Assembly (NCBI GenBank): GCA_964016885.1
Contig: OZ024741.1
Location: 64,108,001-64,172,000 of the forward strand
DNA length: 64,000 bases
Direction: 5' to 3'
Source of the DNA: Eledone cirrhosa
Lineage: Eukaryota
Part shown: positions 3,884-53,107 of the stretch, piece after piece
How positions within the stretch are numbered: the first letter of the stretch is position 1
Layout: each line of letters opens with the position of its first letter
Notes under the pieces: generated by a model
What the model was told of the DNA's origin: nothing
Databases searched by the model: none
What the model saw: only the letters and a program-made list of their open reading frames with translations
Program-made: the position numbers and the translations under genes

Positions 3884-3998
3884 TATACTTGGGGAGGGTC
3901 ATATTGTTATAATAGTATTGCCAGAAATAATAACAGAACACACTCACTGTTTGGTTGGTTTTCGCTTCTGCATCTTTTAACTCTCCATAGTTAATTTA
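3884..3998 (-). repeat. Left (unexpanded) arm of a ~115-bp inverted repeat containing a single CCAACCAAA seed
   Basis: The reverse complement of 3951-3998 matches 4166-4213 (3 mismatches in 48 bp). The reverse complement of 3884-3950 matches 52901-52967 (5 mismatches in 67 bp). Confidence 0.95.
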
Positions 3999-6029
3999 TT
4001 TGGCAATCAATGTTTATCATTGACTGACCAACGGTTAAAAATACAGATATAAATATATATAGTCTAACAAAGTTCTTTCGTTGCACATCTGCAACATCAT
4101 CAGTGGTACTATAATCATGTTTCCTCCTAGTGTGTTGTATGGTAATGTTCACGCCATATTTATTTTAAATTAACTATGGAGATATAAAAGATGCAGAAGC
4201 GAAATCCAACCAAACCAACCAAACCAACCAAACCAACCATACCAACCAAACTAAACACACCAACCATACCAGCCACACCAACCACACCAACCATACCAAC
4301 CAAACCAACGATACCAACCAAGCCAACAATAACAACCACACCAACCACACCAACCATACCAACCAAACCAACCATACCAACCTAACCAACCACACCAACC
4401 ACACCAACCATACCAACCAAACAAACCATACCAACCATACCAACCAAACCAACCACACCAACCACAGCAACAATACCAACCAAACCAACTACATCCAAAC
4501 CAACCAACCACATCAACCATACCAACCAAACCAACCAAACCAACCAAACCAACCACACCAATCATACCAACCAAACCAACTACACCAACCATACCAACCA
4601 AACCAACCAAACCAACAAAACCATCCAAACCAACCAAACCTACCACACCAACCGTACGAACCAAACCAACCATACAAAGCTAACCAACCATACCAACCAA
4701 ACCAACCACACCAACCGTACCAACCAAACCAACCACACCAACCATACCAACCATACCAACCAAACCAACCACACCAACCATACCAACCATACCAACCAAG
4801 CCAACAACACCAACCACAACAACCAAACCAACCAAACCAACCACACCAACCATACCAACCATACCAACCATACCAACCATACCAACCAAAGCAACCACAC
4901 CAACCACAGCAACCATACCAACCAAACCAACCATACCAACTAAACCAACCACACCAACCACACCAACCAAACCAACCAAACCAACCACACCAAACACATC
5001 AACCATACCAACCAAACCAACCATACCAACCAAACCAAAGAAACCAACCACACCAACCATACCAACCAAACCAACCATACCAACCAAAGCAACCACACCA
5101 ACCACAGCAACCATACCAACCAAACCAACCATACCAACTAAACCAACCACACCAACCACACCAACCAAACCAACCAAACCAACCACACCAACCACATCAA
5201 CCATACCAACCAAACCAACCATACCAACCAAACCAAAGAAACCAACCACACCAACCAAGCCAACAACACCAACCACAACAACCAAACCAACCAAACCAAC
5301 CACACCAACCACACCAACCACACCAACCATGCCAACCATACCAACCATACCAACCACATCAACCATACCAACCAAACCAACCATACCAACCAAATCAAAG
5401 AAACCAACCACACCAACCGAACCAACCACACCAACCATACCAACCAAACCAACCATACCAACCAAACCAAAGAAACCAACCACACCAACCAAAACAACCA
5501 CACCAACCATACCAACCAAACCAACCATACCAACCAAACCAAAGAAACCAACCACACCAACCAAACCAACCACACCAACCATAACAACCACACCAACCAC
5601 ACCAACCATACTAACCAAACCAACCACACCAACCACACCAACCAAACCAACCAAACCAACCACACCAACCATACCAACCATACCAACCATACCAACCAAA
5701 CCAACCACACTAACCATACCAACCAAACCAACAACACCAACCACACCAACCGAACCAACGAAACCAACCACACCAACCATACCAACCATACCAACCATAC
5801 CAACCACACCAACCACAACAACCATACCAACCATACCAACCAAACCAACCAGACCAACCATACCAACCATACCAACCAAACCAACCAAACCAACCACACC
5901 AACCACACCAACCGTACCAACCAAACCAACCATACCAACCAAACCCCCCACACCAACCACACCAACGATACCAACCAGACCAACCATACCAACCACACCA
6001 ACCACACCAACCAAACCAACCATACTAAC

Positions 6030-9000
6030 CAAACTAACCACACCAACCATACCAAATATACCAACCACACCAACCACACTAACCAAACAAACCATACCAA
6101 CCATACCAACCATACCAACCACACCAACCGTACCAACCAAACCAACCACAACAACCATACCAACCATACCAACCAAACCAACCACACCAACCATACCAAC
6201 CATACCAACCAAACCAACCAGACCAACCATACCAACCATACCAACCAAACCAACCAAACCAACCACACCAACCACACCAACCATACCAACCACACCAACC
6301 ATACCAACCAAACCAACCACACCAACCATAACAACCATACCAACCACACCAACCACACTAACCATACCAACCAAACCAACCATACCAACCAAACCAACCA
6401 CACCAACCATAACAACCATACCAACCACACCAACCACACTAACCATACCAACCAAAACAACCATACCAACCATACCAACCAGACCAACCACACCAACCGT
6501 ACCAACCAAACCAACCACAACAAATATACCAACCATACCAACCAAACCAACCACACCCACCATACCAACCATACCAACCAAACCAACCAGACCAACCATA
6601 CCAACCATACCAACCAAACCAACCAAACCAACCACACCAACCACACCAACCATACCAACCAAACCAACCATACCAACCAAACCACCCACACCAACCACAC
6701 CAACGATACCAACCAAACCAACCATACCAACCACACCAACCACACCAACCAAACCAACCAAACCAAACAAACAAAAAAAACCAACCATACCAACCAAACT
6801 AAACACACCAACCATACCAACCATACCAACCACACCAACCACGCCAACCATACCAACCAAACCAACCATACCAACCAAACCAACCACACTAACCACGCCA
6901 ACCACACCAAACATACAAACCAAACCAACCAAACCAACCAAACCAACCACACCAACCACACCAACCATACCAACCAAACCAACCATACCAACCATACCAC
7001 CCAAACCAACCACACCAACCACACCAACCATACCAACCAAACCAACCATACCAACCAAACCAACCAAACCAACCACACCAACCACACCAACCATACCAAC
7101 CAAGCCAACCATACCAACCACACCAACCACACCAACCAAACCAACCAAACCAAACAAACAAACCAAACCAACCATACCAACCAAACTAAACACACCAACC
7201 ATACCAACCATACCAACCACACCAACCACGCCAACCATACCAACCAAACCAACCATACCAACCAAACCAACCACACTAACCACGCCAACCACACCAAACA
7301 TACAAACCAAACCAACCAAACCAACCAAACCAACCACACCAACCACACCAACCATACCAACCAAACCAACCATACCAACCATACCACCCAAACCAACCAC
7401 ACCAACCACACCAACCATACCAACCAAACCAACCATACCAACCAAACCAACCAAACCAACCACACCAACCACACCAACCATACCAACCAAGCCAACCATA
7501 CCAACCACACCAACCACACCAACCAAACCAACCAAACCAAACAAACAAACCAAACCAACCATACCAACCAAACTAAACACACCAACCATACCAACCATAC
7601 CAACCACACCAACCACGCCAAACATACCAACCAAACCAACCATACCAACCAAACCAACCACACCAACCACGCCAACCACACCAAACATACAAACCAAACC
7701 AACCAAACCAACCAAACCAACCACACCAACCACACCAACCATACCAACCAAACCAACCATAACAACCATACCACCCAAACCAACCACACCAACCACAGCA
7801 ACCATACCAACCAAACCAACCATACCAACTAAACCAACCACACCAACCACATCAACCAAACCAACCACACCAACCACACCAACCATACCAACCATACCAA
7901 CCAAACCAACCATACCAACCAAACCAACCAAACCAACCACACCAACCACACCAACCATACCAACCAAACCAACCATACCAACCAAACAAAAGAAACCAAC
8001 CACACCAACCATACCAACCATACCAACCATACCAACCAAACCAAACAAAACAACCACACCAACCATGCCAACCATACCAACCAAACCAACCAAACCAACA
8101 ACACCAACCACATCAACCATACCAACCAAACCAACCATACCAACCAAACCAAAGAAACCAACCACACCAACCGTACCAACCATACCAACCAAACCAAACA
8201 AACCAACCACACCAACCATGCCAACCATACCAACCATACCAACCAAACTAACCACACCAACCATACCAACCACGCCAACAACACCAACCATACCAGCCAA
8301 ACCAACCATACCAACCAAACCAACAACACCAATCATACCAACCAAACCAACCACACCAACCACACCAACCAAACCAACCATACCAACCATAAAAACCAAA
8401 CCAACCATACCAACCAAACCAAACACAACAACCAAACCAACCATAACAACCATACCAACCAAACCAACTAGACCAACCAAACCAACCACACCAACCACAC
8501 CAACCATACCAACTAAACCAACCAAACCAACCAAACCAACCAAACCAACCAAACCAACCATACAAACCAAACTAAACACACCAACCATACCAACCACACC
8601 AACCACACCAACCATACCAACCAAACCAACGAAACCAACCAAACCAACCACACCAACCATACCAACCAAACCAACGAAACCAACCAAACCAACCATACCA
8701 ACCACACCAACCACACCAACCATACCAACCAAACCAACGAAACCAACGAAACCAACCACACCAACCATACCAACCAAACCAACCATACCAACCACACCAA
8801 CCATACCAACCAAACCAACCACACCAACCACAGCAACCATACGAACCAAACCAACCATACCAACTAAACCAACCACACCAACCACACCAACCATACCAAC
8901 CAAACCAAACATACCAACCAAACCAACCAAACCAACCACGCCAACCATACCAACCAAACCAACCATACCAACCAAACCAACCACACCAACCACGCCAACC

Positions 9001-12000
9001 ACACCAAACATACAAACCAAACCAACCAAACCAACCAAACCAACCACACCAACCACACCAACCATACCAACCAAACCAACCATACCAACCATACCACCCA
9101 AACCAACCACACCAACCACAGCAACCATACCAACCAAACCAACCATACCAACTAAACCAACCACACCAACCACACCAACCATACCAACCAAACCAACCAT
9201 ACCAACCAAACCAACCAAACCAACCACACCAACCACACCAACCATACCAACCAAACCAACCATACCAACCAAACCAAAGAAACCAACCACACCAACCATA
9301 CCAACCATACCAACCAAACCAAACAAAACAACCACACCAACCATGCCAACCATACCAACCAAACCAACCAAACCAACCACACCAACCATACCAACCATAC
9401 CAACCAAACCAAACAAACCAACCACACCAACCATGCCAACCATACCAACCATGCCAACCATACCAACCAAACCAAAGAAACCAACCACACCAACCATACC
9501 AACCATACCAACCAAACCAAACAAACCAACCACACCAACCATACCAACCAAACCAACCATACCAACCATGCCAACCATACCAACCATACTAACCAAACCA
9601 ACCAAACCAACCACGCCAACAACACCAACCATACCAGCCAAACCAACCATACCAACCAAACCAACAACACCAACCACACCAACCATACCAACCAAACCAA
9701 CCACACCAACCACACCAACCAGACCAACCAAACCAACCATACCAACCAGACCAACCACACCAACCAGACCAACCAAACCAACCACACCAACCACACCAAC
9801 CACAACAAACACACCAACAGTACCAACCGAACCAACCACACCAACCATACCAACCATACCAACCGTACCAACCGAACCAACCAAACCAACCACACCAACC
9901 ACACCAACCATACCAACTAAACCAACCAAACCAACGAAACCAACCACACCAACCACACCAACCACACCAACCACACCAACCACACCAACCACACCAACCA
10001 TACCAACCACACCAAACAAACCAACCATACCAACCATACCAACCAAACCAACTATACCAACCATACCAACCACACCAACCAAACCAACCATACCAACCAA
10101 ACCAAACAAACCAACCATACCAACCATACCAACCAAACCAACTATACTAACCAAACCAACCACACCAACCATACCAACCATACCAACCACACCAACCACA
10201 CTAACCACTCCAACCAAACCAACCATACCAACCATACCAACCAAACCAACCACACCAACCATACCAACCATACCAACCAAACCAACCACACCAACCATAC
10301 CAACCAAGCCAACCATACCAACCAAACCAACCACACCAACCATACCAACCATACCAACCAGACCAACCATACTAACCATACCAACCACACCAACCATACC
10401 AACCATACCAACCAGACCAACCACACTGACCACACCAACCAAACCAACCATACCAACCATACCAACCAGACCAACCACACCAACCGTACCAACCAAACCA
10501 ACCACACCAAACATACCAACCAAACCAACCACACCAACCATACCAACCATACCAACCAAACCAACCAGACCAACCATACCAACCATACCAACCAAACCAA
10601 CCTAACCAACCACACCAACCACACCAACCGTACCAACCAAACCAACCACAACAAACATACCAACCATACCAACCAAACCAACCACAGCAACCAAACCAAC
10701 CATACCAACCATACTAACCAAACCAACCACACCAACCATACCAACCATACCAACCACACCAACCACACTAACCATACCAACCAAACCAACCATACCAACC
10801 ATACCAACCATACCAACCAGACCAAACACACCAACCGTACCAACCAAACCAACCACACCAAACATACCAACCAAACCAACCACACCAATCATACCAACCA
10901 TACCAACCAAACCAACCAGACCAACCATACCAACCATACCAACCAAACCAACCAAACCAACCACACCAACCACACCAACCATACCAACCAAACCAACCAC
11001 ACCAACCATACCAACCATACCAACCAAACCAACCATACCAACCAAACCAACCATACCAACCAAACCAACCACAACAACCATACCAACCAAACCAACCAAA
11101 CCAACCAAACCAACAAAACCACCCACACCAACCACACCAACGATACCAACCAAACCAACCACACCAACCATACCAACCATACCAACCACACCAACCACAC
11201 CAACCAAACCAACCAAACCAAACAAACCAACCACACCAACCATACCAACCACACCAACCATACCAACCATACCAACCAAACCAACCACACCAACCACACC
11301 AACCAAACCAACCAAACCAAACAAACCAACCACACTAACCATACCAACCATACCAACCTCACCAACCAAACCAACTATACCAACCACACCAACCATACCA
11401 ACCATACCAACCACACCAACCACACCAACCAAACCAACCAAACCAACCACACCAACCATACCAACCACACCAACCATACCAACCATACCAACCATACCAA
11501 CCAAACCAACCACACCAACCACACCAACCAAACTATCCAAACCAACCATACCAACATAAACAAATCACACCAACCATACCAACCATACCAAGCAAACCAA
11601 CCACACCAACCAAACCAACCATACCAACCAAACCAACCACACCAACAATACTAACCAAACCAACCACACCAACCATACCAACCAAACCAACCACACCAAC
11701 CAGACCAACCATACCAACCAAACCAACCAAACCAACCTCACCAACCATACCAACAAAACCAACCAAACCAACCAAACCAACCATACCAACCAAACCAACC
11801 ACACCAACCAAACCAACCACACCAACCATACCAACCAAACCAACCACACCAACCATACCAACCAAACCAACAACACCAACAATACCAACCAGACCAACCA
11901 TACCAACCAAACTAACCACACCAACCATACCAACCATACCAACCACACCAACCACACTAACCAAACAAACCATACCAACCATACCAACCATACCAACCAC

Positions 12001-15000
12001 ACCAACCGTACCAACCAAACCAACCACAACAACCATACCAACCATACCAACCAAACCAACCACACCAACCATACCAACCATACCAACCAAATCAACCAGA
12101 CCAACCATACCAACCATACCAACCAAACCAACCAAACCAACCACACCAACCACACCAACCATACCAACCAAACCAACCATACCAACCAAACCAACCACAC
12201 CAACCATAACAACCATACCAACCACACCAACCACACTAACCATACCAACCAAACCAACCATACCAACCATACCAACCAGACCAACCACACCAACCGTACC
12301 AACCAAACCAACCACAACAAATATACCAACCATACCAACCAAACCAACCACACCCACCATACCAACCATACCAACCAAACCAACCAGACCAACCATACCA
12401 ACCATACCAACCAAACCAACCAAACCAACCACACCAACCACACCAACCATACCAACCAAACCAACCATACCAACCAAACCACCCACACCAACCACACCAA
12501 CGATACCAACCAAACCAACCATACCAACCACACCAACCACACCAACCAAACCAACCAAACCAAACAAACAAAAAAAACCAACCATACCAACCAAACTAAA
12601 CACACCAACCATACCAACCATACCAACCACACCAACCACGCCAACCATACCAACCAAACCAACCATACCAACCAAACCAACCACACTAACCACGCCAACC
12701 ACACCAAACATACAAACCAAACCAACCAAACCAACCAAACCGACCACACCAACCACACCAACCATACCAACCAAACCAACCATACCAACCATACCACCCA
12801 AACCAACCACACCAACCACACCAACCATACCAACCAAACCAACCATACCAACCAAACCAACCAAACCAACCACACCAACCACACCAACCATACCAACCAA
12901 GCCAACCATACCAACCACACCAACCACACCAACCAAACCAACCAAACCAAACAAACAAACCAAACCAACCATACCAACCAAACTAAACACACCAACCATA
13001 CCAACCATACCAACCACACCAACCACGCCAACCATACCAACCAAACCAACCATACCAACCAAACCAACCACACCAACCACGCCAACCATACCAAACATAC
13101 AAACCAAACCAACCAAACCAACCAAACCAACCACACCAACCACACCAACCATACCAACCAAACCAACCATAACAACCATACCACCCAAACCAACCACACC
13201 AACCACAGCAACCATACCAACCAAACCAACCATACCAACTAAACCAACCACACCAACCACATCAACCAAACCAACCACACCAACCACACCAACCATACCA
13301 ACCATACCAACCAAACCAACCATACCAACCAAACCAACCAAACCAACCACACCAACCACACCAACCATACCAACCAAACCAACCATACCAACCAAACAAA
13401 AGAAACCAACCACACCAACCATACCAACCATACCAACCAAACCAAACAAAACAACCACACCAACCATGCCAACCATACCAACCAAACCAACCAAACCAAC
13501 AACACCAACCACATCAACCATACCAACCAAACCAACCATACCAACCAAACCAAAGAAACCAACCACACCAACCGTACCAACCATACCAACCAAACCAAAC
13601 AAACCAACCACACCAACCATGCCAACCATACCAACCATACCAACCAAACTAACCACACCAACCATACCAACCACGCCAACAACACCAACCATACCAGCCA
13701 AACCAACCATACCAACCAAACCAACAACACCAATCATACCAACCAAACCAACCACACCAACCACACCAACCAAACCAACCATACCAACCATAAAAACCAA
13801 ACCAACCATACCAACCAAACCAAACACAACAACCAAACCAACCATAACAACCATACCAACCAAACCAACTAGACCAACCAAACCAACCACACCAACCACA
13901 CCAACCATACCAACTAAACCAACCAAACCAACCAAACCAACCAAACCAACCAAACCAACCATACAAACCAAACTAAACACACCAACCATACCAACCACAC
14001 CAACCACACCAACCATACCAACCAAACCAACAAAACCAACCAAACCAACCACACCAACCATACCAACCAAACCAACGAAACCAACCAAACCAACCATACC
14101 AACCACACCAACCACACCAACCATACCAACCAAACCAACGAAACCAACGAAACCAACCACACCAACCATACCAACCAAACCAACCATACCAACCACACCA
14201 ACCATACCAACCAAACCAACCACACCAACCACAGCAACCATACGAACCAAACCAACCATACCAACTAAACCAACCACACCAACCACACCAACCATACCAA
14301 CCAAACCAAACATACCAACCAAACCAACCACACCAACCACGCCAACCACACCAAACATACAAACCAAACCAACCAAACCAACCAAACCAACCACACCAAC
14401 CACACCAACCATACCAACCAAACCAACCATACCAACCATACCACCCAAACCAACCACACCAACCACAGCAACCATACCAACCAAACCAACCATACCAACT
14501 AAACCAACCACACCAACCACACCAACCATACCAACCAAACCAACCATACCAACCAAACCAACCAAACCAACCACACCAACCACACCAACCATACCAACCA
14601 AACCAACCATACCAACCAAACCAAAGAAACCAACCACACCAACCATACCAACCATACCAACCAAACCAAACAAAACAACCACACCAACCATGCCAACCAT
14701 ACCAACCAAACCAACCAAACCAACCACACCAACCATTCCAACCATACCAACCAAACCAAACAAACCAACCACACCAACCATGCCAACCATACCAACCATG
14801 CCAACCATACCAACCAAACCAAAGAAACCAACCACACCAACCATACCAACCATACCAACCAAACCAAACAAACCAACCACACCAACCATACCAACCATGC
14901 CAACCATACCAACCATACTAACCAAACCAACCAAACCAACCACGCCAACAACACCAACCATACCAGCCAAACCAACCATACCAACCAAACCAACAACACC

Positions 15001-17210
15001 AACCATACCAACCAAACCAACCACACCAACCAGACCAACCAAACCAACCATACCAACCAGACCAACCACACCAACCAAACCAACCAAACCAACCACACCA
15101 ACCACACCAACCACAACAAACACACCAACCGTACCAACCGAACCAACCACACCAACCATACCAACCATACCAACCGTACCAACCGAACCAACCAAACCAA
15201 CCACACCAACCACACCAACCATACCAACTAAACCAACCAAACCAACGAAACCAACCACACCAACCACACCAACCACACCAACCACACCAACCACACCAAC
15301 CACACCAACCATACCAACCACACCAAACAAACCAACCATACCAACCATACCAACCAAACCAACTATACCAACCATACCAACCACACCAACCAAACCAACC
15401 ATACCAACCAAACCAAACAAACCAACCATACCAACCATACCAACCAAACCAACTATACTAACCAAACCAACCACACCAACCATACCAACCATACCAACCA
15501 CACCAACCACACTAACCACTCCAACCAAACCAACCATACCAACCATACCAACCAAACCAACCACACCAACCATACCAACCATACCAACCACACCAACCAC
15601 ACTAACCACACCAACCAAACCAACCATACCAACCATACCAACCAAACCAACCACACCAACCATACCAACCAAACCAACCAGACCAACCATATCGACCATA
15701 CCAACCAAACCAACCAAACCAACCACACCAACCACACCAACCATACCAACCAAGCCAACCATACCAACCAAACCAACCACACCAACCAAACCAACCATAC
15801 CAACCATACTAACCATACCAACCACACCAACCATACCAACCATACCAACCAGACCAACCACACTGACCACACCAACCAAACCAACCATACCAACCATACC
15901 AACCAGACCAACCACACCAACCGTACCAACCAAACCAACCACACCAAACATACCAACCAAACCAACCACACCAACCATACCAACCATACCAACCAAACCA
16001 ACCAGACCAACCATACCAACCATACCAACCAAACCAACCTAACCAACCACACCAACCACACCAACCGTACCAACCAAACCAACCACAACAAACATACCAA
16101 CCATACCAACCAAACCAACCACACCAACCAAACCAACCATACCAACCATACTAACCAAACCAACCACACCAACCATACCAACCATACCAACCACACCAAC
16201 CACACTAACCACACCAACCAAACCAACCATACCAACCATACCAACCATACCAACCAGACCAAACACACCAACCGTACCAACCAAACCAACCACACCAAAC
16301 ATACCAACCAAACCAACCACACCAATCATACCAACCATACCAACCAAACCAACCAGACCAACCATACCAACCATACCAACCAAACCAACCAAACCAACCA
16401 AACCAACCACACCAACCATACCAACCATACCAACCGAACCAACCATACCAACCAAACCAACCATACCAACCAAACCAACCACAACAACCATACCAACCAA
16501 ACCAACCAAACCAACCAAACCAACAAAACCACCCACACCAACCACACCAACGATACCAACCAAACCAACTATACCAACCACACCAACCATACCAACCATA
16601 CCAACCACACCAACCACACCAACCAAACCAACCACACCAACCATACCAACCAAACCAACTATACCAACCACACCAACCATACCAACCATACCAACCACAC
16701 CAACCACACCAACCAAACCAACCAAACCAACCACACCAACCATACCAACCACACCAACCATACCAACCATACCAACCATACCAACCAAACCAACCACACC
16801 AACCACACCAACCAAACTATCCAAACCAACCATACCAACATAAACAAATCACACCAACCATACCAACCATAACAACCATACCAACCATACCAAGCAAACC
16901 AACCACACCAACCAAACCAACCATAGCAACCAAACCAACCACACTAACAATACCAACCAAACCAACCACACCAACCATACCAACCAAACCAACCACACCA
17001 ACCAGACCAACCATACCAACCAAACCAACCAAACCAACCTCACCAACCATACCAACAAAACCAACCAAACCAACCAAACCAACCATACCAACCAAACCAA
17101 CCACACCAACCAAACCAACCACACCAACCATACCAACCAAACCAACCACACCAACCATACCAACCAAACCAACAACACCAACAATACCAACCAGACCAAC
17201 CATACCAACC
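6030..17210 (+). repeat. Higher-order tandem duplication within the array (about 6030-11908 vs 11909-17210)
   Basis: Shared rare markers recur at offsets of about 5.3-5.9 kb: TAA variant at 10603/16040 and irregular block AACTATCC...CATAAACAAATCAC at 11531/16815. Near-identical ORF-track translations occur at offsets 5797, 5410 and 5401. Confidence 0.9.
6720..7800 (+). repeat. 387-bp (43-monomer) higher-order repeat, about 3 copies
   Basis: Identical ORF-track peptides 6889..7161 and 7276..7548; the AAACCAAACAAACAA marker is at about 6760, 7147 and 7534. Confidence 0.9.
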
Positions 17211-20200: not shown

Positions 20201-22129
20201 ACCAACCATACCAACCACACCAACCATACCAACCATACCAACCATACCAACCAAACCAACGCACCAACCATACCAACCATACCAACCAAACCAATCACAC
20301 CAACCGCACCAACCAAACTATCCAAACCAACCATACCAACATAAACAAATCACACCAACCATACCAACCATACCAAGCAAACCAACCACACCAACCAAAC
20401 CAACCATACTAACCAAACCAACCACACCAACCATACCAACCAAACCAACCAAACCAACCATACCAACCAAACCAACCACACCAACCATACCAACCATACC
20501 AACCAAACCAACCACACCAACCATACCAACCATACCAACCACACCAACCATACCAACCATACCAACCACACCAACCATACCAACCAAACCAACCACACCA
20601 ACCATACCAACCAAACCAACCACACCAACCATACCAACCAAACCAACCACACCAACCATACCAACCAAACCAACCAGACCAACCATACCAACCAAACCAA
20701 CCACACCAACCATACCAACAAAACCAACCAAACCAACCAAACCAACCATACCAACCAAACCAACCACACCAACCAAACCAACCATACCAACCAGACCAAC
20801 CACACGAACCATACCAACCAAACCAACCACACCAACCATACCAACCATACCAGCCACACCAACCACACCAAACATACCAACTAAACCAACGATACCAACC
20901 AAACCAACCACACCAACCACGCCAACCACACCAACCATACCAACCAAACCAAAGAAACCAACCACACCAACCATACCAACCATACCAACCATACCAATCA
21001 TACCAACCAAACCAACCACACCAAACATACCAACCAAACCAACCACACCAACCATACCAACCAAACCAACCAAACCAACCATACCAACCAAACCAACCAC
21101 ACCAACCATACCAACCATACCAACCAAACCAACCACACCAACCATACCAACCACACCAACCATACCAACCATACCAACCACACCAACCATACCAACCATA
21201 CCAACCACACCAACCATACCAACCAAACCAACCACACCAACCATACCAACCAGACCAACCATACCAACCAAACCAACCACACCAACCATACCAACAAAAC
21301 CAACCAAACCAACCAAACCAACCATACCAACCAAACCAACCACACCAACCAAACCAACCATACCAACCAGACCAACCACACGAACCATACCAACCAAACC
21401 AACCACACCAACCATACCAACCATACCAGCCACACCAACCACACCAAACATACCAACTAAACCAACGATACCAACCAAACCAACCACACCAACCACGCCA
21501 ACCACACCAACCATACCAACCAAACCAAAGAAACCAACCACACCAACCATACCAACCATACCAACCATACCAACCATACCAACCAAACCAACCAAACCAA
21601 CCACGCCAACCACACCAACCATACCAACCAGACCAACCACACGAACCATACCAACCAAACCAACCACACCAACCATACCAACCATACCAGCCACACCAAC
21701 CACACCAAACATACCAACTAAACCAACGATACCAACCAAACCAACCACACCAACCACGCCAACCACACCAACCATACCAACCAAACCAAAGAAACCAACC
21801 ACACCAACCATACCAACCACACCAACCATACCAACCATACCAACCAAACCAACCAAACCAACCACGCCAACCACACCAACCATACCAACCAAACCAAAGA
21901 AACCAAACACGCCAACCATACCAACCATACCAACCATACCAATCATACCAACCAAACCAACCACACCAAACATACCAACCAAACTAACCACACCAACCAT
22001 ACCAACCACACCAACCACACCAACCATAACAACCAAACCAACCACACCAACCTCACCAATCAGGCCAACCAAACCAACCACACCAACCATACCAACCAAA
22101 CCAACCATACCAACCATACCAACCACACC

Positions 22130-25100
22130 AACCATACCAACCAAACCAAAGAAACCAACCACACCAACCATACCAACCATACCAACCAAACCAACCAAAC
22201 CAACCACGCCAACCACACCAACCATACCAACCAAACCAAAGAAACCAAACACGCCAACCATACCAACCATACCAACCATACCAATCATACCAACCAAACC
22301 AACCACACCAAACATACCAACCAAACTAACCACACCAACCATACCAACCACACCAACCACACCAACCATAACAACCAAACCAACCACACCAACCATACCA
22401 ACCAAACCAACCATACCAACCATACCAACCACACCAACCATACCAACCAAACCAACCATACCAACCATACCAACCAAACCAACCATACCAACCAAACCAA
22501 CCACACCAACCATACCAACCAAACCAACCATACCAACCAAACCAACAACACCAACCACACCAACCAAACCAACCAAACCAACCACACCAACCATACCAAC
22601 CATACCAACCATACCAACCACACCAACCACACCAACCATACCAACCAAACCAACCACACCAACCATACCAAGCATACCAACCACACCAACCACATTAACC
22701 ATACCAACCAAACCAACCACACCAACCATACCAACCATACCAACCAAACCAACCACACCAACCATACCAACCATACCAACCAAACCAACCAAACCAACCA
22801 CACCAACCAAACCAACCATACCAACCAAACCAACCAAACCAACCATACCAACCAAACCAACCACACCAACCATACCAAACATACCAACCACACCAACCAC
22901 AATAACCATACCAACCAAACCAACCACACCAACCCCACCAACCACAACAAACACACCAACCGTACCAACCAAACCAACCATACCAACCATACCAACCAAA
23001 CCAACCATACCAACTAAACCAACCACACCAACCACACCAACTATACCAACCAAACCAACCAAACCAACGATACCAACGATACCAACCAAACCAACCACAC
23101 CAACCACACCAACCACAACCAACCATACCAACCAACCCAACCATACCAACCAACCACACCAACCACACCAACCATACCAACCAAACCAACCATACCAACC
23201 ATACCAACTAAACCAACCACACCAACCACACCAACCATACCAACCAAACCAAACATACCAACCAAACCAACCAAACCAACCACACCAAACATACCAACCA
23301 TACCAACCAAACCAACCATACCAAATATACCAACCACACCAACCACAATAACGATACCAACCAAACCAACAACACCAACCACAACAACCAAACCAACCAA
23401 ACCAACCACACCAACCATACCAACCATACCAACCATACCAACCACACCAACCACAACAACCATACCAACCAAACCAACCACACCAACCATACCAACCATA
23501 CCAACCATACCAACCACACCAACCACAACAACCATACCAACCAAACCAACCATACCAAACAAACCAACCAAACCAACCATACCAAATATACCAACCACAC
23601 CAACCACAATAACCATACCAACCAAACCAACCATACCAACCATACCAACCAGACCAACCACACCAACCGTACCAACCAAACCAACCACACCAACCACACC
23701 AACTATAGCATCCAAACCAACTGAACCAACCATACCAACCAAACCAACCAAACCAACCATACCAAACATACCAACCACACCAACCACAACAACCATACCA
23801 ACCAAACCAACCATAACAACCAAACCAACCACACCAACCACACCAACCATACCAACCACAGCAACCATACCAACCAAACCAACCAAACCAACCAAACCAA
23901 CGAAACCAACCACACCAACCAAACCAACCACACCAACCACAACAACCATACCAACCAAACCAACCATACCAACCACACCAACCATACCAACCATACCAAC
24001 CAAACCAACCACACCAACCACACCAACCATACCAACCATACCAACCATACCAACCATACCAACCAAACCAACCACACCAACCACACCAAATATACCAACT
24101 AAACCAACCAAACAAACGAAACCATCCACACCAACCACACCAACCACACCAACCACACCAACCATACCAACCATACCAACCATACCAACCATACCAACCA
24201 AAGCAACCTCACCAACCACAGCAACCATACCAACCAAACCAACCATACCAACTAAACCAACCACACCAACCACACCAACCAAACCAACCACACCAACCAC
24301 ATCAACCATACCAACTAAACCAACCATACCAACCAATAAAAGAAACCAACCACACCAACCATACCAACCAAACCAACCACACCAAACATACCAACCAAAC
24401 CAACCACACCAACCATAACAACCACACCAACCACACCAACCATACCAACCACACCAACCACACCAACCATACTAACCAAACCAACCACACCAACCACACC
24501 AACCACACCAACCACACCAACCACATTAACCATACCAAGCAAACCAACCACACTAACCATACCAACCAAACAAACCACACCAACCAAACCAACCAAACCA
24601 ACCACAACAACCATACCAACCATACCAACCATACCAACCACACCAACCACACCAACCATACCAACCAAACCAACCACACCAACCATACCAACCATACCAA
24701 CCACACCAACCAAACCAACCATACCAACCAAACCAACCAAACCAACCATACTAACCAAACTAACCACACCAACCATAACAACCATACCAACCATACCAAC
24801 CATACCAACCATACCAACCACACCAACCACACCAACCATACCAACCAAACCAACCACACCAACCATACCAACCACACCAACCATACCAACCAAACAAACC
24901 ACACCAACCAAACCAACCAAACCAACCACAACAACCATACCAACCATACCAACCATACCAACCACACCAACCACACCAACCATACCAACCAAACCAACCA
25001 CACCAACCATACCAACCATACCAACCACACCAACCAAACCAACCATACCAACCAAACCAACCAAACCAACCATACTAACCAAACTAACCACACCAACCAT

Positions 25101-37900: not shown

Positions 37901-39754
37901 AACCATACCAACCAAACCAACCAGACCAACCATACCAACCATACCAACCATACCAACCAAACCAACCAAACCAACCACACCAACCACACCAACCATACCA
38001 ACCAAACCAACCATACCAACCAAACCAACCACACCAACCAAACCAACCATACCAACCAAACCAACCAAACCAACCACACCAACCACATCAACCATACCAA
38101 CCAAACCAACCATACAACCAAACCAAAGAAACCAACCACACCAACCATACCAACCAAACCAACCACACCAAACATACCAACCAAACCAACCACACCAACC
38201 ATAACAACCACACCAACCACACCAACCATACCAACCACACCAACCACACCAACCATACTAACCAAACCAACCACACCAACCACACCAACTACACCAACCA
38301 CACCAACCACATTAACCATACCAACCAAACCAACCACACTAACCATACCAACCAAACCAACCACACCAACCAAACCAACCAAACCAACCACACCAACCAC
38401 ACCAACCATACCAACCAAACCAACCACACCAACCACACCAACCATACCAACCACACCAACCATACCAACCAAACCAACCAAACCAACCACACCAACCACA
38501 CCAACCACACCAACCAAACCAACCACACCAACCACACCAACCGTACCAACCAAACCAACCAAACCAACCACACCAACCATACCAACCAAACCAACCAAAC
38601 CAACCAAACCACCAAACCAACCAAACCAACCAAACCAACCACACCAACCACACCAACCACACCAACCAAACCAACCACACCAACCACACCAACCATACCA
38701 ACCAAACCAACCACACCAACCACACCAACCATACCAACCAAACCAACCAAACCAACCACACCAACCATACCAACCAAACCAACCAAACCAACCAAACAAC
38801 CAAACCAACCAAACCAACCACACCAACCACACCAACCAAACCAACCAAACCAACCAAACCAACCAAACCAACCAAACCAACCAAACCCACCACACCAACC
38901 ACACCAACCAAACCAACCAAGCCAACCAAACCAACCAAACCAACCAAACCAACCAAACCAACCAAACCAACCACACCAACCACACCAACCACACCAACCA
39001 CACCAACCAAACCAACCACACCAACCACACCAACCATACCAACCAAACCAACCAAACCAACCACACCAACCATACCAACCAAACCAACCAAACCAACCAA
39101 ACCACCAAACCAACCAAACCAACCAAACCAACCAAACCAACCATACCAACCACACCATACATACCAACCAAACCAACCAAACCAACCACACCAACCACAC
39201 CAACCACACCAACCAAACCAACCACACCAACCACACCAACCATACCAACCCCAACCACACCAACCATACCAACCAAACCAACCAAACCAACCAAACCACC
39301 ACACCAACCAAACCAACCAAACCAACCATACCAACCACACCAACCACACCAACCAAACCAACCAAACCAACCACACCAACCAAACCAACCAAACCCACCA
39401 CACCAACCACACCAACCAAACCAACCAAACCAACCAAACCAACCAAACCAACCAAACCAACCACACCAACCACACCAACCAAAGCAACCAAACCAACCAA
39501 ACCAACCACACCAACCACACCAACCACACCAGCCATACCAACCACACCAACCATACCAACCAAACCAACCAAACCAACCACACCAACCACACCAACCACA
39601 CCAACCAAACCAACCACACCAACCACACCAACCATACCAACCAAACCAACCAAACCAACCACACCAACCATACCAACCAAACCAACCAAACCAACCAAAC
39701 CACCAAACCAACCAAACCAACCACACCAACCACACCAACCAAACCAACCAAACC

Positions 39755-42700
39755 AACCAAACCAACCACAACAACCATACCCACCAAACCAACCAAACCA
39801 ACCATACCAACCAATCCAACCACACCAACCACACCAACCATACCAACCAATCCAACCACACCAACCACACCAACCATACCAACCAAACCAACCACACCAA
39901 CCATACCAACCACACCAACCACACCAACCATACCAACAACACCAACCACACCAACCATACCCACCAAACCAACCAAACCAACCAAACCAACCACACCAAC
40001 CATACCAATCAAACCAACCACACCAACCATATCAACCACACCAACCACACCAACCATACCCACCAAACCAACCAAACCAACCACACCAACCATACCAACC
40101 ACACCAACCACACCAACCATACCAACAACACCAACCACACCAACCATACCCACCAAACCAACGAAACCAACCAAACCCACCACACCAACCATACCAACCA
40201 AACCAACCACACCAACCATACCAACCACACCAACCACACCAACCATACCCACCAAACCAACCAAACCAACCACACCAACCACACCAACCACACCAACAAC
40301 ACCAACAACACCAACCACACCAACCATACCCACCAAACCAACCAAACCAACCACACCAACCATACCAACCACACCAACCACACCAACCATACCAACCAAA
40401 CAAACCATACCAACCAAACAAACCATACCAACCAATCCAACCACACCAACAACACCAACCACACCAACCATACCCACCAAACCAACCAAACCAACCACAC
40501 CAACCATACCAACCACACCAACCACACCAACCATACCAACCAAACAAACCATACCAACCATACCAACCAAACCAACCAAACCAACCACACCAACCATACC
40601 CACCAAACCAACCAAACCAACCATACCAACCAATCCAACCACACCAACCACACCAACCAAACCAACCAAACCAAACAAACAATCCAAACCAACCATACCA
40701 ACCAAACTAAACACACCAACCATACCTACCATACCAACCACACCAACCACGCCAACCATACCAACCAAACCAACGATACCAACCAAACCAACCACACCAA
40801 CCACGCCAACCACACCAACCATACCAACCATACCAACCACACCAACCAGACCAACCACACCAACCACACCAACCATACCAACCAAACCAACCATACCAAC
40901 CATACCACCCAAACCAACCACACCAAACACAGCAACCATACCAACCAAACCAACCATACCAACTAAACAAACCACACCAACCACACCAACCATACCAACC
41001 AAACCAACCATACCAACCAAACCAACCAAACCAACCACACCAACCACACCAACCATACCAACCAATCCAACCAAACCAACCAAACCAACCATACCAACCA
41101 CACCAACCACACCAACCATACCAACCATACCAACCAAACCAAACAAACCAACCACACCAACCATGCCAACCATACCAACCATACCAACCAAACCAACCAC
41201 ACCAACCATACCATCCAAACTAACCACACCAACCATACCAACCACGCCAACAACACCAACCATACCAACCAAACCAACCACACCAACCACACCAACCATA
41301 CCAACCAAACCAACCATACCAACCAGACCAACTACACCAACCGTACCAACCAAACCAACCACACCAACCATACCAACCATACCAACCAAACCAACCACAC
41401 CAACCATACCAACCATACCAACCAAACCAACCACACCAACCATACCAACCACACCAACCACACCAACCATACCAACCATACCAACCAGACCAACCACACC
41501 AACCGTACCAACCACACCAACCAAACCAACCACACCAACCACACCAACCATACCAACCACACCAACCATACCAACCACACCAACCAAACCAACCAAACCA
41601 ACCAAACCAACCAAACCAACCATACCAACCATACCAACCATACCAACCAGACCAACCACACCAACCGTACCAACCATACCAACCAAACCAACCACACCAA
41701 CCACCCTAACCATACCAACCACACCAACCATACCAACCACACCAACCAAACCAACCAAACCAACCAAACCAACCAAACCAACAATACCAACCATACCAAC
41801 CAAACCAACCACACCAACCACACCAACCACACCAACCACACCAACCAAACCAACCACACCAACCATACCAACCAAACCAACCAAACAAACCAAACCAACC
41901 AAACCAACCATACCAACCAAACCAACCACACCAACCACACCAACCACACCAACCATACCAACCAAACCAACCACACCAACCAAACCAACCAAACCAACCA
42001 AACCAACCAAACCAACCATACCAACCACACCAACCACACCAACCACACCAACCATACCAACCAAACCAACCACACCAACCAAACCAACCAAACCAACCAA
42101 ACCAACCAAACCAACCAAACCAACCAAACCAACCAAACCAACCAAACCAACCATACCAACCACACCAACTACACCAACCACACCAACCACACCAACCCAC
42201 CAACCATACCAACCAAACCAACCAAACCAACCACACCAACCACACCAACCACACCAACCACACCAACCATACCAACCAAACCAACCAAACCAACCACACC
42301 AACCACACCAACCACACCAACCACACCAACCAAACCAACCATACCAACCACACCAACCACACCAACCAAACCAACCAAACCAACCAAACCAACCACACCA
42401 ACCACACCAACCACACCAACCAACCAACCAAACCAACCAAACCAACCAAACCAACCAAACCAACCACACCAACCAAACCAACCATACCAACCACACCAAC
42501 CACACCAACCAAACCAACCAAACCAACCAAACCAACCAAACCAACCACACCAACCACACCAACCATACCAACCACACCAACCACACCAACCAAACCAACC
42601 ACACCAACCACACCAACCATACCACCAAACCAACCAAACCAACCACACCAACCATACCAACCAAACCAACCAAACCAACCAAACCACCACACCAACCACA

Positions 42701-45700
42701 CCAACCACACCAACCACACCAACCAAACCAACCAAACCAACCATACCAACCACACCAACCACACCAACCAAACCAACCAAACCAACCAAACCAACCACAC
42801 CAACCAAACCAACCAAACCAACCACACCAACCACACCAACCAAACCAACCAAACCAACCAAACCAACCAAACCAACCACACCAACCACACCAACCAAACC
42901 AACCAAACCAACCAAACCAACCACACCAACCACACCAACAACACCAACCATACCAACCACACCAACCATACCAACCAAACCAACCAAACCAACCACACCA
43001 ACCACACCAACCACACCAACCAAACCAACCACACCAACCACACCAACCATACCAACCAAACCAACCAAACCAACCACACGAACCATACCAACCAAACCAA
43101 CCAAACCTACCAAACCACCAAACCAACCAAACCAACCACACCAACCACACCAACCAAACCAACCAAACCAACCAAACCACCACACCAACCACACCAACCA
43201 CACCAACCACAACAGCCATAGCCACCAAACCAACCAAACCAACCAAACCAACCAAACCACCACACCAACCACACCAACCACACCAACCAAACCAACCAAA
43301 CCAACCACAACAACCATACCCACCAAACCAACCAAACCAACCATACCAACCAAACCAACCAAACCACCACACCAACCACACCAACCACACCAACCAAACC
43401 AACCAAACCAACCACAACAACCATACCCACCAAACCAACCAAACCAACCATACCAACCAATCCAACCACACCAACCACACCAACCATACCAACAACACCA
43501 ACCACACCAACCATACCCACCAAACCAACCAAACCAACCAAACCAACCACACCAACCATACCAACCAAACCAACCACACCAACCATACCAACCACACCAA
43601 CCACACCAACCATACCCAACAAACCAACCAAACCAACCACACCAACCATACAAACCACACCAACCACACCAACCATACCAACAACACCAACCACACCAAC
43701 CATACCCACCAAACCAACCAAACCAACCACACCAACCACACCAACAACACCAACCACACCAACCATACCAACCAAACCAACCAAACCAACCACACCAACC
43801 ATACCAACCACACCAACCACAACAACCACACCAACCATACCAACCAAACAAACCATACCAACCATACCAACCAAACCAACCAAACCAACCACACCAACCA
43901 TACCCACCAAACCAACCAAACCAACCATACCAACCAATCCAACCACACCAACCACACCAACCAAACCAACCAAACCAAACAAACAAACCAAACCAACCAT
44001 ACCAACCAAACTAAACACACCAACCATACCAACCATACCAACCACACCAACCACGCCAACCATACCAACAAAACCAACGATACCAACCAAACCAACCACA
44101 CCAACCACGCCAACCACACCAAACATACAAACCAAACCAACCATACCAACCAAACTAAACACACCAACCATACCAACCATAGCAACCACACCAACCAGAC
44201 CAACCACACCAACCACACCAACCATACCAACCAAACCAACCATACCAACCATACCACCCAAACCAACCACACCGAACACAGCAACCATACCAATCAAACC
44301 AACCATACCAACTAAACAAACCACACCAACCACACCAACCATACCAACCAAACCAACCATACCAACCAAACCAACCAAACCAACCACACCAACCACACCA
44401 ACCATACCAACCAATCCAACCAAACCAACCAAACCAACCATACCAACCACACCAACCACACCAACCATACCAACCATACCAACCAAACCAAACAAACCAA
44501 CCACACCAACCATGCCAACCATACCAACCATACCAACCAAACCAACCACACCAACCAAACCAACCACAACAACCATACCCACCAAACCAACCAAACCAAC
44601 CATACCAACCAATCCAACCACACCAACCACACCAACCATACCAACCAATCCAACCACACCAACCACACCAACCATACCAACCAAACCAACCACACCAACC
44701 ATACCAACCACACCAACCACACCAACCATACCAACAACACCAACCACACCAACCATACCCACCAAACCAACCAAACCAACCAAACCAACCACACCAACCA
44801 TACCAATCAAACCAACCACACCAACCATATCAACCACACCAACCACACCAACCATACCCACCAAACCAACCAAACCAACCACACCAACCATACCAACCAC
44901 ACCAACCACACCAACCATACCAACAACACCAACCACACCAACCATACCCACCAAACCAACGAAACCAACCAAACCCACCACACCAACCATACCAACCAAA
45001 CCAACCACACCAACCATACCAACCACACCAACCACACCAACCATACCCACCAAACCAACCAAACCAACCACACCAACCACACCAACCACACCAACAACAC
45101 CAACAACACCAACCACACCAACCATACCCACCAAACCAACCAAACCAACCACACCAACCATACCAACCACACCAACCACACCAACCATACCAACCAAACA
45201 AACCATACCAACCAAACAAACCATACCAACCAATCCAACCACACCAACAACACCAACCACACCAACCATACCCACCAAACCAACCAAACCAACCACACCA
45301 ACCATACCAACCACACCAACCACACCAACCATACCAACCAAACAAACCATACCAACCATACCAACCAAACCAACCAAACCAACCACACCAACCATACCCA
45401 CCAAACCAACCAAACCAACCATACCAACCAATCCAACCACACCAACCACACCAACCAAACCAACCAAACCAAACAAACAATCCAAACCAACCATACCAAC
45501 CAAACTAAACACACCAACCATACCTACCATACCAACCACACCAACCACGCCAACCATACCAACCAAACCAACGATACCAACCAAACCAACCACACCAACC
45601 ACGCCAACCACACCAACCATACCAACCATACCAACCACACCAACCAGACCAACCACACCAACCACACCAACCATACCAACCAAACCAACCATACCAACCA

Positions 45701-48700
45701 TACCACCCAAACCAACCACACCAAACACAGCAACCATACCAACCAAACCAACCATACCAACTAAACAAACCACACCAACCACACCAACCATACCAACCAA
45801 ACCAACCATACCAACCAAACCAACCAAACCAACCACACCAACCACACCAACCATACCAACCAATCCAACCAAACCAACCAAACCAACCATACCAACCACA
45901 CCAACCACACCAACCATACCAACCATACCAACCAAACCAAACAAACCAACCACACCAACCATGCCAACCATACCAACCATACCAACCAAACCAACCACAC
46001 CAACCATACCATCCAAACTAACCACACCAACCATACCAACCACGCCAACAACACCAACCATACCAACCAAACCAACCACACCAACCACACCAACCATACC
46101 AACCAAACCAACCATACCAACCAGACCAACTACACCAACCGTACCAACCAAACCAACCACACCAACCATACCAACCATACCAACCAAACCAACCACACCA
46201 ACCATACCAACCATACCAACCAAACCAACCACACCAACCATACCAACCACACCAACCACACCAACCATACCAACCATACCAACCAGACCAACCACACCAA
46301 CCGTACCAACCACACCAACCAAACCAACCACACCAACCACACCAACCATACCAACCACACCACCATACCAACCACACCAACCAAACCAACCAAACCAACC
46401 AAACCAACCAAACCAACCATACCAACCATACCAACCATACCAACCAGACCAACCACACCAACCGTACCAACCATACCAACCAAACCAACCACACCAACCA
46501 CCCTAACCATACCAACCACACCAACCATACCAACCACACCAACCAAACCAACCAAACCAACCAAACCAACCAAACCAACAATACCAACCATACCAACCAA
46601 ACCAACCACACCAACCACACCAACCACACCAACCACACCAACCAAACCAACCACACCAACCATACCAACCAACCAACCAAACAAACCAAACCAACCAAAC
46701 CAACCATACCAACCAAACCAACCACACCAACCACACCAACCACACCAACCATACCAACCAAACCACCACACCAACCAAACCAACCAAACAACCAAACCAA
46801 CCAACCAAACCAACCATACCAACCACACCAACCACACCAACCACACCAACCATACCAACCAAACCAACCACACCAACCAAACCAACCAAACCAACCAAAC
46901 CAACCAAACCAACCAAACCAACCAAACCAACCAAACCAACCAAACCAACCATACCAACCACACCAACTACACCAACCACACCAACCACACCAACCCACCA
47001 ACCATACCAACCAAACCAACCAAACCAACCACACCAACCACACCAACCACACCAACCACACCAACCATACCAACCAAACCAACCAAACCAACCACACCAA
47101 CCACACCAACCACACCAACCACACCAACCAAACCAACCATACCAACCACACCAACCACACCAACCAAACCAACCAAACCAACCAAACCAACCACACCAAC
47201 CACACCAACCACACCAACCAAACCAACCAAACCAACCAAACCAACCAAACCAACCAAACCAACCACACCAACCAAACCAACCATACCAACCACACCAACC
47301 ACACCAACCAAACCAACCAAACCAACCAAACCAACCAAACCAACCACACCAACCACACCAACCATACCAACCACACCAACCACACCAACCAAACCAACCA
47401 CACCAACCACACCAACCATACCACCAAACCAACCAAACCAACCACACCAACCATACCAACCAAACCAACCAAACCAACCAAACCACCACACCAACCACAC
47501 CAACCACACCAACCACACCAACCAAACCAACCAAACCAACCATACCAACCACACCAACCACACCAACCAAACCAACCAAACCAACCAAACCAACCACACC
47601 AACCAAACCAACCAAACCAACCACACCAACCACACCAACCAAACCAACCAAACCAACCAAACCAACCAAACCAACCACACCAACCACACCAACCAAACCA
47701 ACCAAACCAACCAAACCAACCACACCAACCACACCAACAACACCAACCATACCAACCACACCAACCATACCAACCAAACCAACCAAACCAACCACACCAA
47801 CCACACCAACCACACCAACCAAACCAACCACACCAACCACACCAACCATACCAACCAAACCAACCAAACCAACCACACGAACCATACCAACCAAACCAAC
47901 CAAACCAACCAAACCACCAAACCAACCAAACCAACCACACCAACCACACCAACCAAACCAACCAAACCAACCAAACCACCACACCAACCACACCAACCAC
48001 ACCAACCACAACAGCCATAGCCACCAAACCAACCAAACCAACCAAACCAACCAAACCACCACACCAACCACACCAACCACACCAACCAAACCAACCAAAC
48101 CAACCACAACAACCATACCCACCAAACCAACCAAACCAACCATACCAACCAAACCAACCAAACCACCACACCAACCACACCAACCACACCAACCAAACCA
48201 ACCAAACCAACCACAACAACCATACCCACCAAACCAACCAAACCAACCATACCAACCAATCCAACCACACCAACCACACCAACCATACCAACAACACCAA
48301 CCACACCAACCATACCCACCAAACCAACCAAACCAACCAAACCAACCACACCAACCATACCAACCAAACCAACCACACCAACCATACCAACCACACCAAC
48401 CACACCAACCATACCCAACAAACCAACCAAACCAACCACACCAACCATACAAACCACACCAACCACACCAACCATACCAACAACACCAACCACACCAACC
48501 ATACCCACCAAACCAACCAAACCAACCACACCAACCACACCAACAACACCAACCACACCAACCATACCAACCAAACCAACCAAACCAACCACACCAACCA
48601 TACCAACCACACCAACGACACCAACCATACCAACCAAGCAAACCATACCAACCATACCAACCATACCCACCAAACCAACCAAACCAACCACACAAACCAT

Positions 48701-48870
48701 ACCAACCACAACAACCACACCAACCATACCAACCAAACCAACCAAACCAACCATACCAACCAATCCAACCACACCAACCACACCAACCAAACCAACCAAA
48801 CCAAACAAACAAACCAAACCAACCATACCAACCAAACTAAACACACCAACCATACCAACCATACCAACCA
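39755..48870 (+). repeat. About 4798-bp tandem duplication within the array
   Basis: Identical ORF-track peptides at offset 4798 (40009/44807, 40707/45505, 40963/45761). The second copy has additional 1-bp indels around 46360-46800. Confidence 0.88.
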
Positions 48871-51800: not shown

Positions 51801-52964
51801 AAACCAACCAAACCAACCACAACAACCATACCCACCAAACCAATCAAACCAACCATACCAACCACACCAACCATACCAACAACACCAACCACACCAACCA
51901 TACCCACCAAACCAACCAAATCAACCAAACCAACCACACCAACCATACCAACCAAACCAACCACACCAACCATACCAACCACACCAACCACACCAACCAT
52001 ACCCACCAAACCAACCAAACCAACCACACCAACCATACCAACCACACCAACCACACCAACCATACCAACAACACCAACCACACCAACCATACCCACCAAA
52101 CCAATCAAACCAACCAAACCCACCACACCAACCATACCAACCAAACCAACCACACCAACCATACCAACCACACCAACCACACCAACCATACCTACCAAAC
52201 CAACCAAACCAACCACACCAACCACACCAACAACACCAACCACACCAACCATACCCACCAAACCAACCAAACCAACCGCCGCAACCATACCAACCACACC
52301 AACCACACCAACCATACCAACCAAACAAACCATACCAACCATACCAACCACACCAACCACACCAACCATACCAACCAAACCAACCACACCAACCATACCA
52401 ACCAAACCAACCACACCAACCATACCAACCACACCAACCACACCGACCATACCCACCAAACCAACCAAACCAACCAATCCAACCACACCAACAACACCAA
52501 CCAAACCAACCATACCCACCAAACCAACCAAACCAACCACACCAACCATACCAACCACACCAACCACACCAACCATACCAACCAAACAAACCATACCAAC
52601 CATACCAACCAAACCAACCAAACCAACCACACCAACCATACCCACCAAACCAACCAAACCAACCATACCAACCAATCCAACCACACCAACCATACCAACC
52701 AAACCAACCAAACCAACCACACCAACCACACCAACCACACCAACCAAACCAACCATACCCACCAAACCAACCAAACCAACCATACCAACCAATCCAACCA
52801 CACCAACCATACCAACCAAACCAACCAATCCAACCACACCAACCACACCAACCATACCAACCAAACCAACCAATCCAACCATACCAACCACACCAACCAA
52901 ACAGTGAGTGTGTTCTGTTATTATTTCTGGCAATATAATCATAACAATATGACCCTTCCTAAGT

Positions 52965-53042
52965 ATATATATATATAACATAAATATATATATACATACA
53001 AATGTGTTTATATATATGAATATATATGTACGTATATATCTA

Positions 53043-53103: not shown

Positions 53104-53107
<4 letters not shown>

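Follow-up and report, generated by a model that had tools for sequence, protein, structure and literature searches.

A 48.7-kb array of a 9-bp unit at a one-unit seed in a Penelope-like end repeat of Eledone cirrhosa

The window analysed here is a stretch of 64,000 nucleotides from the Eledone cirrhosa assembly GCA_964016885.1 (contig OZ024741.1, hereafter C2, positions 64,108,001-64,172,000). It contains a 48.7-kb array of a 9-bp unit, CCAACCA[A/C/T]A, located at a one-unit seed in the end repeat (pseudo-long terminal repeat, pLTR) of a Penelope-like element (PLE). The array probably grew at this position after insertion of the element, starting with a likely slip between two copies of AAAC, a reading to which we assign a probability of about 0.8. 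Birth in situ is likely because the seed occurs in 15,480 copies, its 9-bp duplication is found only here, and all matches to four consecutive units fall within the window. The start of a satellite is usually unrecoverable, its initial state being lost, but at this one locus the start (in the sister arm and the 15,480 copies), the apparent rarity of the first step (one locus), a trimer stage and block duplications can be read together.

The array and the two arms of its host

The features on which the description rests are the following.

3803-3822, no strand: (TA)10 microsatellite, left side of the insertion target (sequence)
3823-4167, minus strand: left arm, the 5'-truncated 3' end (pLTR) of a PLE (similarity to family copy L009)
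3950-3958, minus strand: single seed CCAACCAAA (sequence; exact 21-mer context 15,480 times in the genome)
4076-4103, minus strand: hammerhead-core-like motif, CTGATGA, one extra T, 6-bp stem, GAAA (sequence)
4166-4205, plus strand: right arm, 5' part, starting at the inversion junction
4206-52901, plus strand: array CCAACCA[A/C/T]A, non-coding, 5,412 units
52902-52967, plus strand: right arm, 3' part, containing the first in-frame ATG of the open reading frame (ORF) and terminating in the TA target
52964-53104, no strand: (TA)-rich microsatellite, right side of the insertion target (TRF)

The array spans 48,696 bases, i.e., 5,412 units by alignment (TRF count 5,411.8), and splits the right-arm sequence in two. 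Compared with the reverse complement of 3884-3998 in the left arm, the part before the array differs at 3 of 40 bases and the part after it at 5 of 66, which amounts to 8 mismatches in 106 flank bases, with one unit standing where the array sits. A single CCAACCAAA in the left arm corresponds to 5,412 units in the opposite one. An earlier note on this DNA had described this split arm with a single unit opposite, and had read the first three units and the last unit of the array as the AAA (seed) variant; both observations are confirmed, and its proposal that the opposite arm preserves the one-unit state is supported. Aligned by BLAST, the arms are identical at 113 of 125 positions (E 3e-46), so their similarity is not due to chance. 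Both array junctions lie in exact register within one element, with no base lost or gained, and both arms carry a T that is found in only 1 of 46 other aligned copies. At the inversion junction the arms have two bases in common (TA, 4166-4167). The left arm extends to 3823, some 60 bases beyond the start that had been given for it; this extra 3' extension (3823-3883) is absent from the right arm. The TA previously thought to flank the element belongs to a (TA)n microsatellite on both sides and is not a 2-bp TA duplication, and such runs at both ends would mask any discrete target-site duplication.

Position 8 of the unit varies freely among three bases: in the 5,368 ungapped units it is A in 1,751, C in 1,783 and T in 1,760, with G confined to 74. 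Another 44 units bear indels. A Pro-Thr repeat exon was considered and rejected, since each of the six frames is interrupted by 68-99 stops and the register shifts 46 times. The element around the array is a dead fragment, in which the array forms passive, non-coding DNA.

Uniqueness of the array in the genome

The counts given here rest on exact-match patterns in one assembly of 3.0 Gb. A four-unit pattern matches at 2,217 places genome-wide, the window accounting for all 2,217, and no other array of the CCAACCAHA unit was found at four units outside it; the older and more diverse arrays without this flank that the earlier note had named as counter-evidence to an in situ origin were thus not encountered at that length. 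With three units, 2,896 of 2,900 matches are in the window, and with two units 3,473 of 3,602, which leaves 129 outside. Seventy-nine of these 129 are located in a different CAA/CAC-rich array on C1, and one is isolated. This separate CAA/CAC-derived array (L094:930-8001, at C1:324.61 Mb) is at least 7 kb long, has periods of 58, 73 and 131 bp and embeds two-unit CCAACCACA words; its left end has no PLE flank.

Searches with the junctions returned 10 matches for the right and 11 for the left, and the 9-bp duplication is present only in the window copy. Among the 19 matches outside the window, 13 have a 5-bp insertion at the seed, where some copies may share descent, and one has a 2-bp insertion, all without expansion; the remaining five comprise three with a substitution variant, one chance join and one deletion. 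A mobile satellite-generating system, raised earlier as a possibility, is excluded for this assembly: there are no other 9-bp duplications among the 9 right and 10 left junction matches outside the window, and no other family copy carries an array by these patterns.

The host is a Penelope-like element

A genome search with 3884-4205 gave 1,854 candidates, and most of the 40 that were scored cover only query positions 1-284, at 91-95% identity. The exact 21-mer around the seed is present in 15,480 copies (7,673 + 7,807). Arm lengths vary among family copies, and the best matches are mostly single-armed. The left arm is 91% identical over 371 columns to positions 1501-1870 of family copy L009. 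In this copy and in four others (L007, L010, L012 and L019), the upstream DNA codes for a reverse transcriptase (RT) thumb region, a Cys linker and a GIY-YIG nuclease, and because members of the family run on upstream into sequence that codes for RT and GIY-YIG, the inverted arms in the window are a pair of Penelope-like pLTRs. In the earlier note the element had been described as like a miniature inverted-repeat transposable element (MITE), with terminal inverted repeats (TIRs). A high-copy mobile family it is, with its 15,480 exact seed copies, but identity as a MITE or TIR DNA transposon is ruled out by the RT and GIY-YIG coding capacity, the one-armed matches and the differing arm lengths. 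Penelope-type inverted pLTR pairs can evidently pass for MITEs.

A related subfamily at C1:14.38-14.40 Mb (L091-L092), with a pLTR 75% identical to the window arm, is arranged as 4,147-bp tandem units and an inverted truncated copy. Its protein (copy L092) has the motifs YVDD in the RT, followed by VVY...YIGET and R...EASE...LNRKNEW, and a linker CTNRKCIIC that precedes CTKGTC ... H ... H, which by eye correspond to the CCHH-type residues in PMC8557442. The CX2-5CxxC linker and the CCHH residues exclude the Hydra and Penelope/Poseidon clades as that source describes them. In Pfam, RVT_1 is matched with E 1e-4, under the cut-off, and GIY-YIG is not matched; Atlas neighbours of the protein at 0.97 are clusters with HTH_animal, RVT_1 and GIY-YIG. 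The RT and GIY-YIG domains are also seen in the closer copies L009, L010, L012 and L019. By the features listed in PMC8557442, and as a motif-based assignment, the flank is a C-terminal-nuclease PLE of the Neptune/Nematis type. The L091-L092 element is a young copy, in which every unit has a long Asn-rich N-terminal stretch and two open frames, of 559 and 675 codons, separated by an identical frame break; since the break is common to all units, it was duplicated along with the tandem.

The layout of the window is also found elsewhere in the family. Among the first 100 listed seed places, counted by eye, there are about 18 minus-then-plus pairs within 5 kb and 3 in the opposite order. Thirteen tail-out pairs were mapped, and in 11 of them a long-tailed arm is paired with a short one; the loci were chosen as close pairs, and the ratio is no estimate of frequency. 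The window shares this arrangement, with a tailed left arm (3823-4167), a tailless right arm and (TA)n on both sides, and PMC8557442 describes PLEs that carry a tail on one side, lie in (TA)n targets and have inverted copies truncated at the 5' end. A further locus of the same family (L093:1054-2672, C1:34.853-34.855 Mb) holds a tandem of five near-identical 313-bp units, every one made of two truncated pLTR pieces in inverted orientation plus (TA)n, and is a second route from this family to tandem DNA.

The hammerhead-like core and stem II at 4076-4103 carry an extra base, and stems I and III are weak by eye. The motif fits the minimal-hammerhead traits of PLEs, including the extra base, in PMC4209133; a search of 3700-4300 against Rfam gave 9 matches, all far under the gathering scores, and no hammerhead. 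The first in-frame ATG of the element ORF is at 52949 (MTLPKY), inside the right arm. This ATG and a TATAAAAG word bracket the seed, beside CAGTGAGT (4180-4205 and 52902-52949), and the array would, judging from these words, part a possible core promoter from the ORF start.

Internal order, block duplications and age

Successive units follow a biased order at position 8. There are 2,631 A>C, C>T and T>A steps as opposed to 837 in reverse, whereas five shuffles give about 1,700-1,800 in each direction, and the bias is present in all 11 bins of the array. We take this order to be the probable trace of a founding 27-bp A-C-T trimer, blurred by subsequent gains and losses of single units. Amplification of such a trimer also accounts for the equal thirds of A, C and T without selection.

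On a larger scale, 11 duplicated blocks, at offsets from 387 bp to 8 kb, hold 48% of the units. Three duplications are listed here.

6367-16393, plus strand: older block duplication in six pieces, offsets 5.3-5.8 kb (96-99% unit identity, nested 387-bp repeat)
22128-28975, plus strand: perfect tandem duplication of 3,424 bases, 0 mismatches
39753-48611, plus strand: block duplication, offset 4,798

In the last of these, 39753-43812 and 44551-48611 (4.06 kb) differ by 3 mismatches and 7 gap positions. The perfect duplication is either very recent or an assembly artefact. Non-canonical units make up 10-23% towards the right end and 21-28% on the left. Outside position 8 the mean variation is 2.8% (4.1% at C, 1.5% at A), which fits 3-5 changes per arm given the arm difference of 8 in 106, and by this rough reckoning the array is no older than its host. 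Changes from C to A are in mild excess (95 of 215 inferred origins in the array, 13 of 50 in family copies, p 0.025), and this could be due to oxidative damage or templated change.

Growth from the seed

The favoured course of events can be set out in four steps. A C-terminal-nuclease PLE came to lie in (TA)n, where two 5'-truncated pLTRs, each with a seed, form a tail-out inverted pair. The 9-mer of the right arm would then have been doubled by slippage between the AAAC repeats, a rare and probably rate-limiting event. Judging from the unit order, two changes at position 8 would have followed while the array was tiny, after which the 27-bp A-C-T trimer was amplified. Finally, the trimer shows the scrambling that single-unit slips may have caused, and blocks of 0.4-5.8 kb were presumably added by unequal exchange or break-induced copying. 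The sense context of the seed, GAAAACCAACCAAACAG, contains the 4-mer AAAC repeated 9 bases apart, and a short direct repeat that brackets the unit is the slippage substrate in the models summarised in PMC3389668 and PMC6947457.

Several observations weigh against this course. At 4 bases, the AAAC repeat falls short of the 5-10 bases that the summary in PMC6947457 gives for the Haber-Louis model, and base 4205 is a T that disrupts the left AAAC copy. No intermediate copy with two to several 9-bp units was found elsewhere, and the slip step rests on one event. Four three-unit matches outside the window, for which five patterns were tried, and 49 two-unit matches (13 forward, 36 reverse) were not traced to a position. 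Finally, none of four sequencing runs covered the unique left flank, for which a filter is possibly responsible, and neither junction was confirmed by reads.

The earlier note had offered two mechanisms. In situ amplification stands as the best reading, no other array having been found, but the repeat-adding RT included under it does not hold for the bulk of the array, which is built of the A-C-T trimer and kilobase duplications.

A possible role for G-quadruplex folding

A more specific proposal is that folding of a G-quadruplex (G4) drove runaway growth in situ: the 9-bp slip would cross the threshold from two to four GG tracts, and the fold would stall replication and promote further gains. 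We consider this possible but doubtful. The minus strand of the array reads (TDTGGTTGG)n and holds 2,025 non-overlapping GGTTGG-TNT-GGTTGG words, which occupy 30,375 of 48,696 bases. The exact sequence GGTTGGTGTGGTTGG is present in 944 non-overlapping copies, and the TAT and TTT forms, counted separately, in 923 and 887. This is the thrombin-binding aptamer d(GGTTGGTGTGGTTGG), a two-quartet antiparallel chair (PMC2553573), whose TAT, TTT and TCT loop variants are also quadruplexes, melting at 44-56 °C as compared with 52-58 °C for the aptamer, both ranges in cosolutes (PMC13204723). The likeness lies in the exact minus-strand sequence; in the window this forms a naturally occurring polymer within double-stranded genomic DNA, where any folding in the cell would be putative, and the origin of the resemblance is coincidental. 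One seed provides two GG tracts on this strand, a 5-bp slip three and a 9-bp duplication four, and each of the 13 family copies with a 5-bp seed insertion has three tracts and lacks an array. Position 8, which varies freely, lies in the middle of the 3-base aptamer loop, and TCT, the lowest-melting variant in PMC13204723, matches the rare G variant. A G4 threshold for satellite birth would then mean that the 9-bp slip made an aptamer-quadruplex polymer while three-tract slips stayed small, with more than 15,000 built-in controls, and that weak two-quartet folds can seed large arrays.

The variation within the array does not favour such a role. GG-tract positions vary more than loop positions (4.1% versus 1.5%, ratio 2.7; the G/C versus A/T ratio in the family is 1.6), and variants that break GG tracts do not have fewer copies per inferred origin (882/215 versus 322/96). 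Selection for intact GG tracts, looked for in both measures, was not seen. Nor is TAT more stable than the TTT of the seed, below which it melts in PMC13204723, and the idea that both derived variants form more stable quadruplexes than the seed was rejected. In yeast, G4-driven instability of minisatellites (CEB1/CEB25 type) is tied to very short loops and high melting (PMC5491262), whereas the aptamer fold melts near 45-60 °C and the present forms combine loops of 2-3 bases with melting at 44-58 °C, outside that range. ViennaRNA with G4 enabled predicted no quadruplex in the single array end tried. The comparison includes one expansion only (n = 1), and some of the 13 controls are possibly related by descent. 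The G4 suggestion in the earlier note fits the sequence but is unproven.

Other explanations

It is improbable that the telomerase-related RT of the element stuttered on the seed at insertion and wrote the first few units, with recombination doing the rest. PLE RTs are sister to telomerase RT (PMC8557442), repeats derived from transposable elements may begin during retrotransposition (PMC3389668), and the array starts 40 bases from the inversion junction. Yet no other 9-bp duplication is present among the arms, at least 15,480 in number, that this enzyme family has produced, and reiterative copying yields uniform units and no A-C-T cycle. For the first step, though only for that step, stuttering is indistinguishable from slippage.

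Equally improbable is an array that already existed elsewhere and was brought to the seed through homology-directed break repair. Seed-type units do stand at both ends, as this would leave them, the CAA/CAC-rich array at C1:324.61 Mb has two-unit CCAACCACA words, and a sequencing run from another organism (X4) has 21 contigs that are 9-mer-like and without the flank, all 8 of those listed aligning on 4202-4232, so the motif can arise without the element. Against these stands the lack of a donor, with no four-unit match outside the window in 3.0 Gb, while the C1 array has 58/73-bp periods, a different unit and no such flank at the end read. The divergence of the array is also no higher than that of the host arms.

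Misassembly, in which an unrelated array was joined to two family copies, is very improbable, even though both flanks are high-copy repeats, the 3,424-bp duplication is 100% identical and the unique left flank is without read coverage. At both junctions the register within a single element is exact, nothing having been gained or lost, the rare variant is common to both arms, neither the window nor 40 kb of neighbouring sequence contains an N, and indels recur along with the duplicated blocks. No telomeric double repeat was found in the 40 kb of neighbours. In public runs, the best word coverage was 0.36-0.44 of the sampled words, and none of 23 runs reached half. When four runs were aligned to 2560-4232, the family was seen at high depth in three, run X1 had one contig looping within units and run X4 had depth only in the last bin, but the unique flank remained uncovered. 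Rows of small share in these alignments count as no evidence. Exact register and the rare variant in both arms argue for the assembled structure, although reads leave the junctions unconfirmed.

A MITE family that spreads such arrays, or a giant Pro-Thr-X coding exon, can be dismissed: the inverted arms do stand in a TA context, and a plus-strand frame gives PTK/PTT/PTI with a donor-like GTGAGT after the array, but RT and GIY-YIG are encoded by the family, an array is found in none of its other members, stops interrupt all frames and there are 46 register shifts, and GTGAGT is present in every family copy.

Comparison with known systems

That tandem repeats are born in retroelements is already well known; 23% of human minisatellites and satellites are of this kind (PMC3389668). 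Examples in PMC6947457 are mouse Ms6-hm in MaLR, (GGCAGA)n from the short interspersed element B1 and human (CGGGAGGC)n from Alu. As for these, a short G-rich unit in the window was probably expanded in situ from a high-copy retroelement word, and unexpanded members represent the ancestral state. The differences are that the host is a Penelope-like pLTR, that one locus among at least 15,480 arms is affected and no repeat family has formed, and that the array reaches 48.7 kb, with trimer order, kilobase blocks and a sister arm of the same insertion that retains the seed. Mouse retroelement-born arrays are shorter and able to form quadruplexes.

The Haber-Louis and Taylor-Breden models (PMC3389668, PMC6947457) share with the favoured reading a short direct repeat that brackets the unit and recombinational growth thereafter; here the direct repeat is 4 bases, the unit 9, and the final size satellite-scale. 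Neptune/Nematis-type C-terminal endonuclease-positive PLEs (PMC8557442) have the same order of RT, CX2-5CxxC linker and GIY-YIG with CCHH, tandem and inverted truncated copies, (TA)n targets and possibly a hammerhead-like core in the pLTR, from which the window differs in that one arm contains a 48.7-kb array; the clade is read from motifs. PLE terminal sequences also give rise to tandem non-LTR retrozymes (bioRxiv 10.64898/2026.07.22.740005), in which tandem DNA likewise arises locally from a PLE terminal sequence, but their unit is the ribozyme-bearing terminal sequence itself, whereas the window unit is a 9-mer without a ribozyme.

What is new here is the internal 9-mer of a pLTR as a route, the scale, the sister arm together with unexpanded controls in their thousands, a trimer history that can still be read and the sequence of an aptamer polymer. 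A literature search of partial coverage, with subscription papers outside it, turned up nothing on this array and nothing on a polymer of the thrombin aptamer in a genome.

Neighbouring repeats

Another high-copy repeat (3340-3800) adjoins the left (TA)n and has deep coverage in three sequencing runs. More Penelope-like fragments lie within 20 kb on either side of the window (minus-strand frames at L118:7836-9340, L120:1-1200 and L120:390-2490), one of which belongs to the family of the array host. To the right of the array are two 5'-truncated non-LTR elements on the plus strand (56199-58088 and 61725-62925) with RT and a C-terminal restriction-like nuclease, which we take from their motifs to be R4/Dong-like; (ACAT)n flanks the first. 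Between them, on the minus strand (58697-61347), is a broken long interspersed element with apurinic/apyrimidinic endonuclease and RT frames, presumably RTE-like from its motifs.

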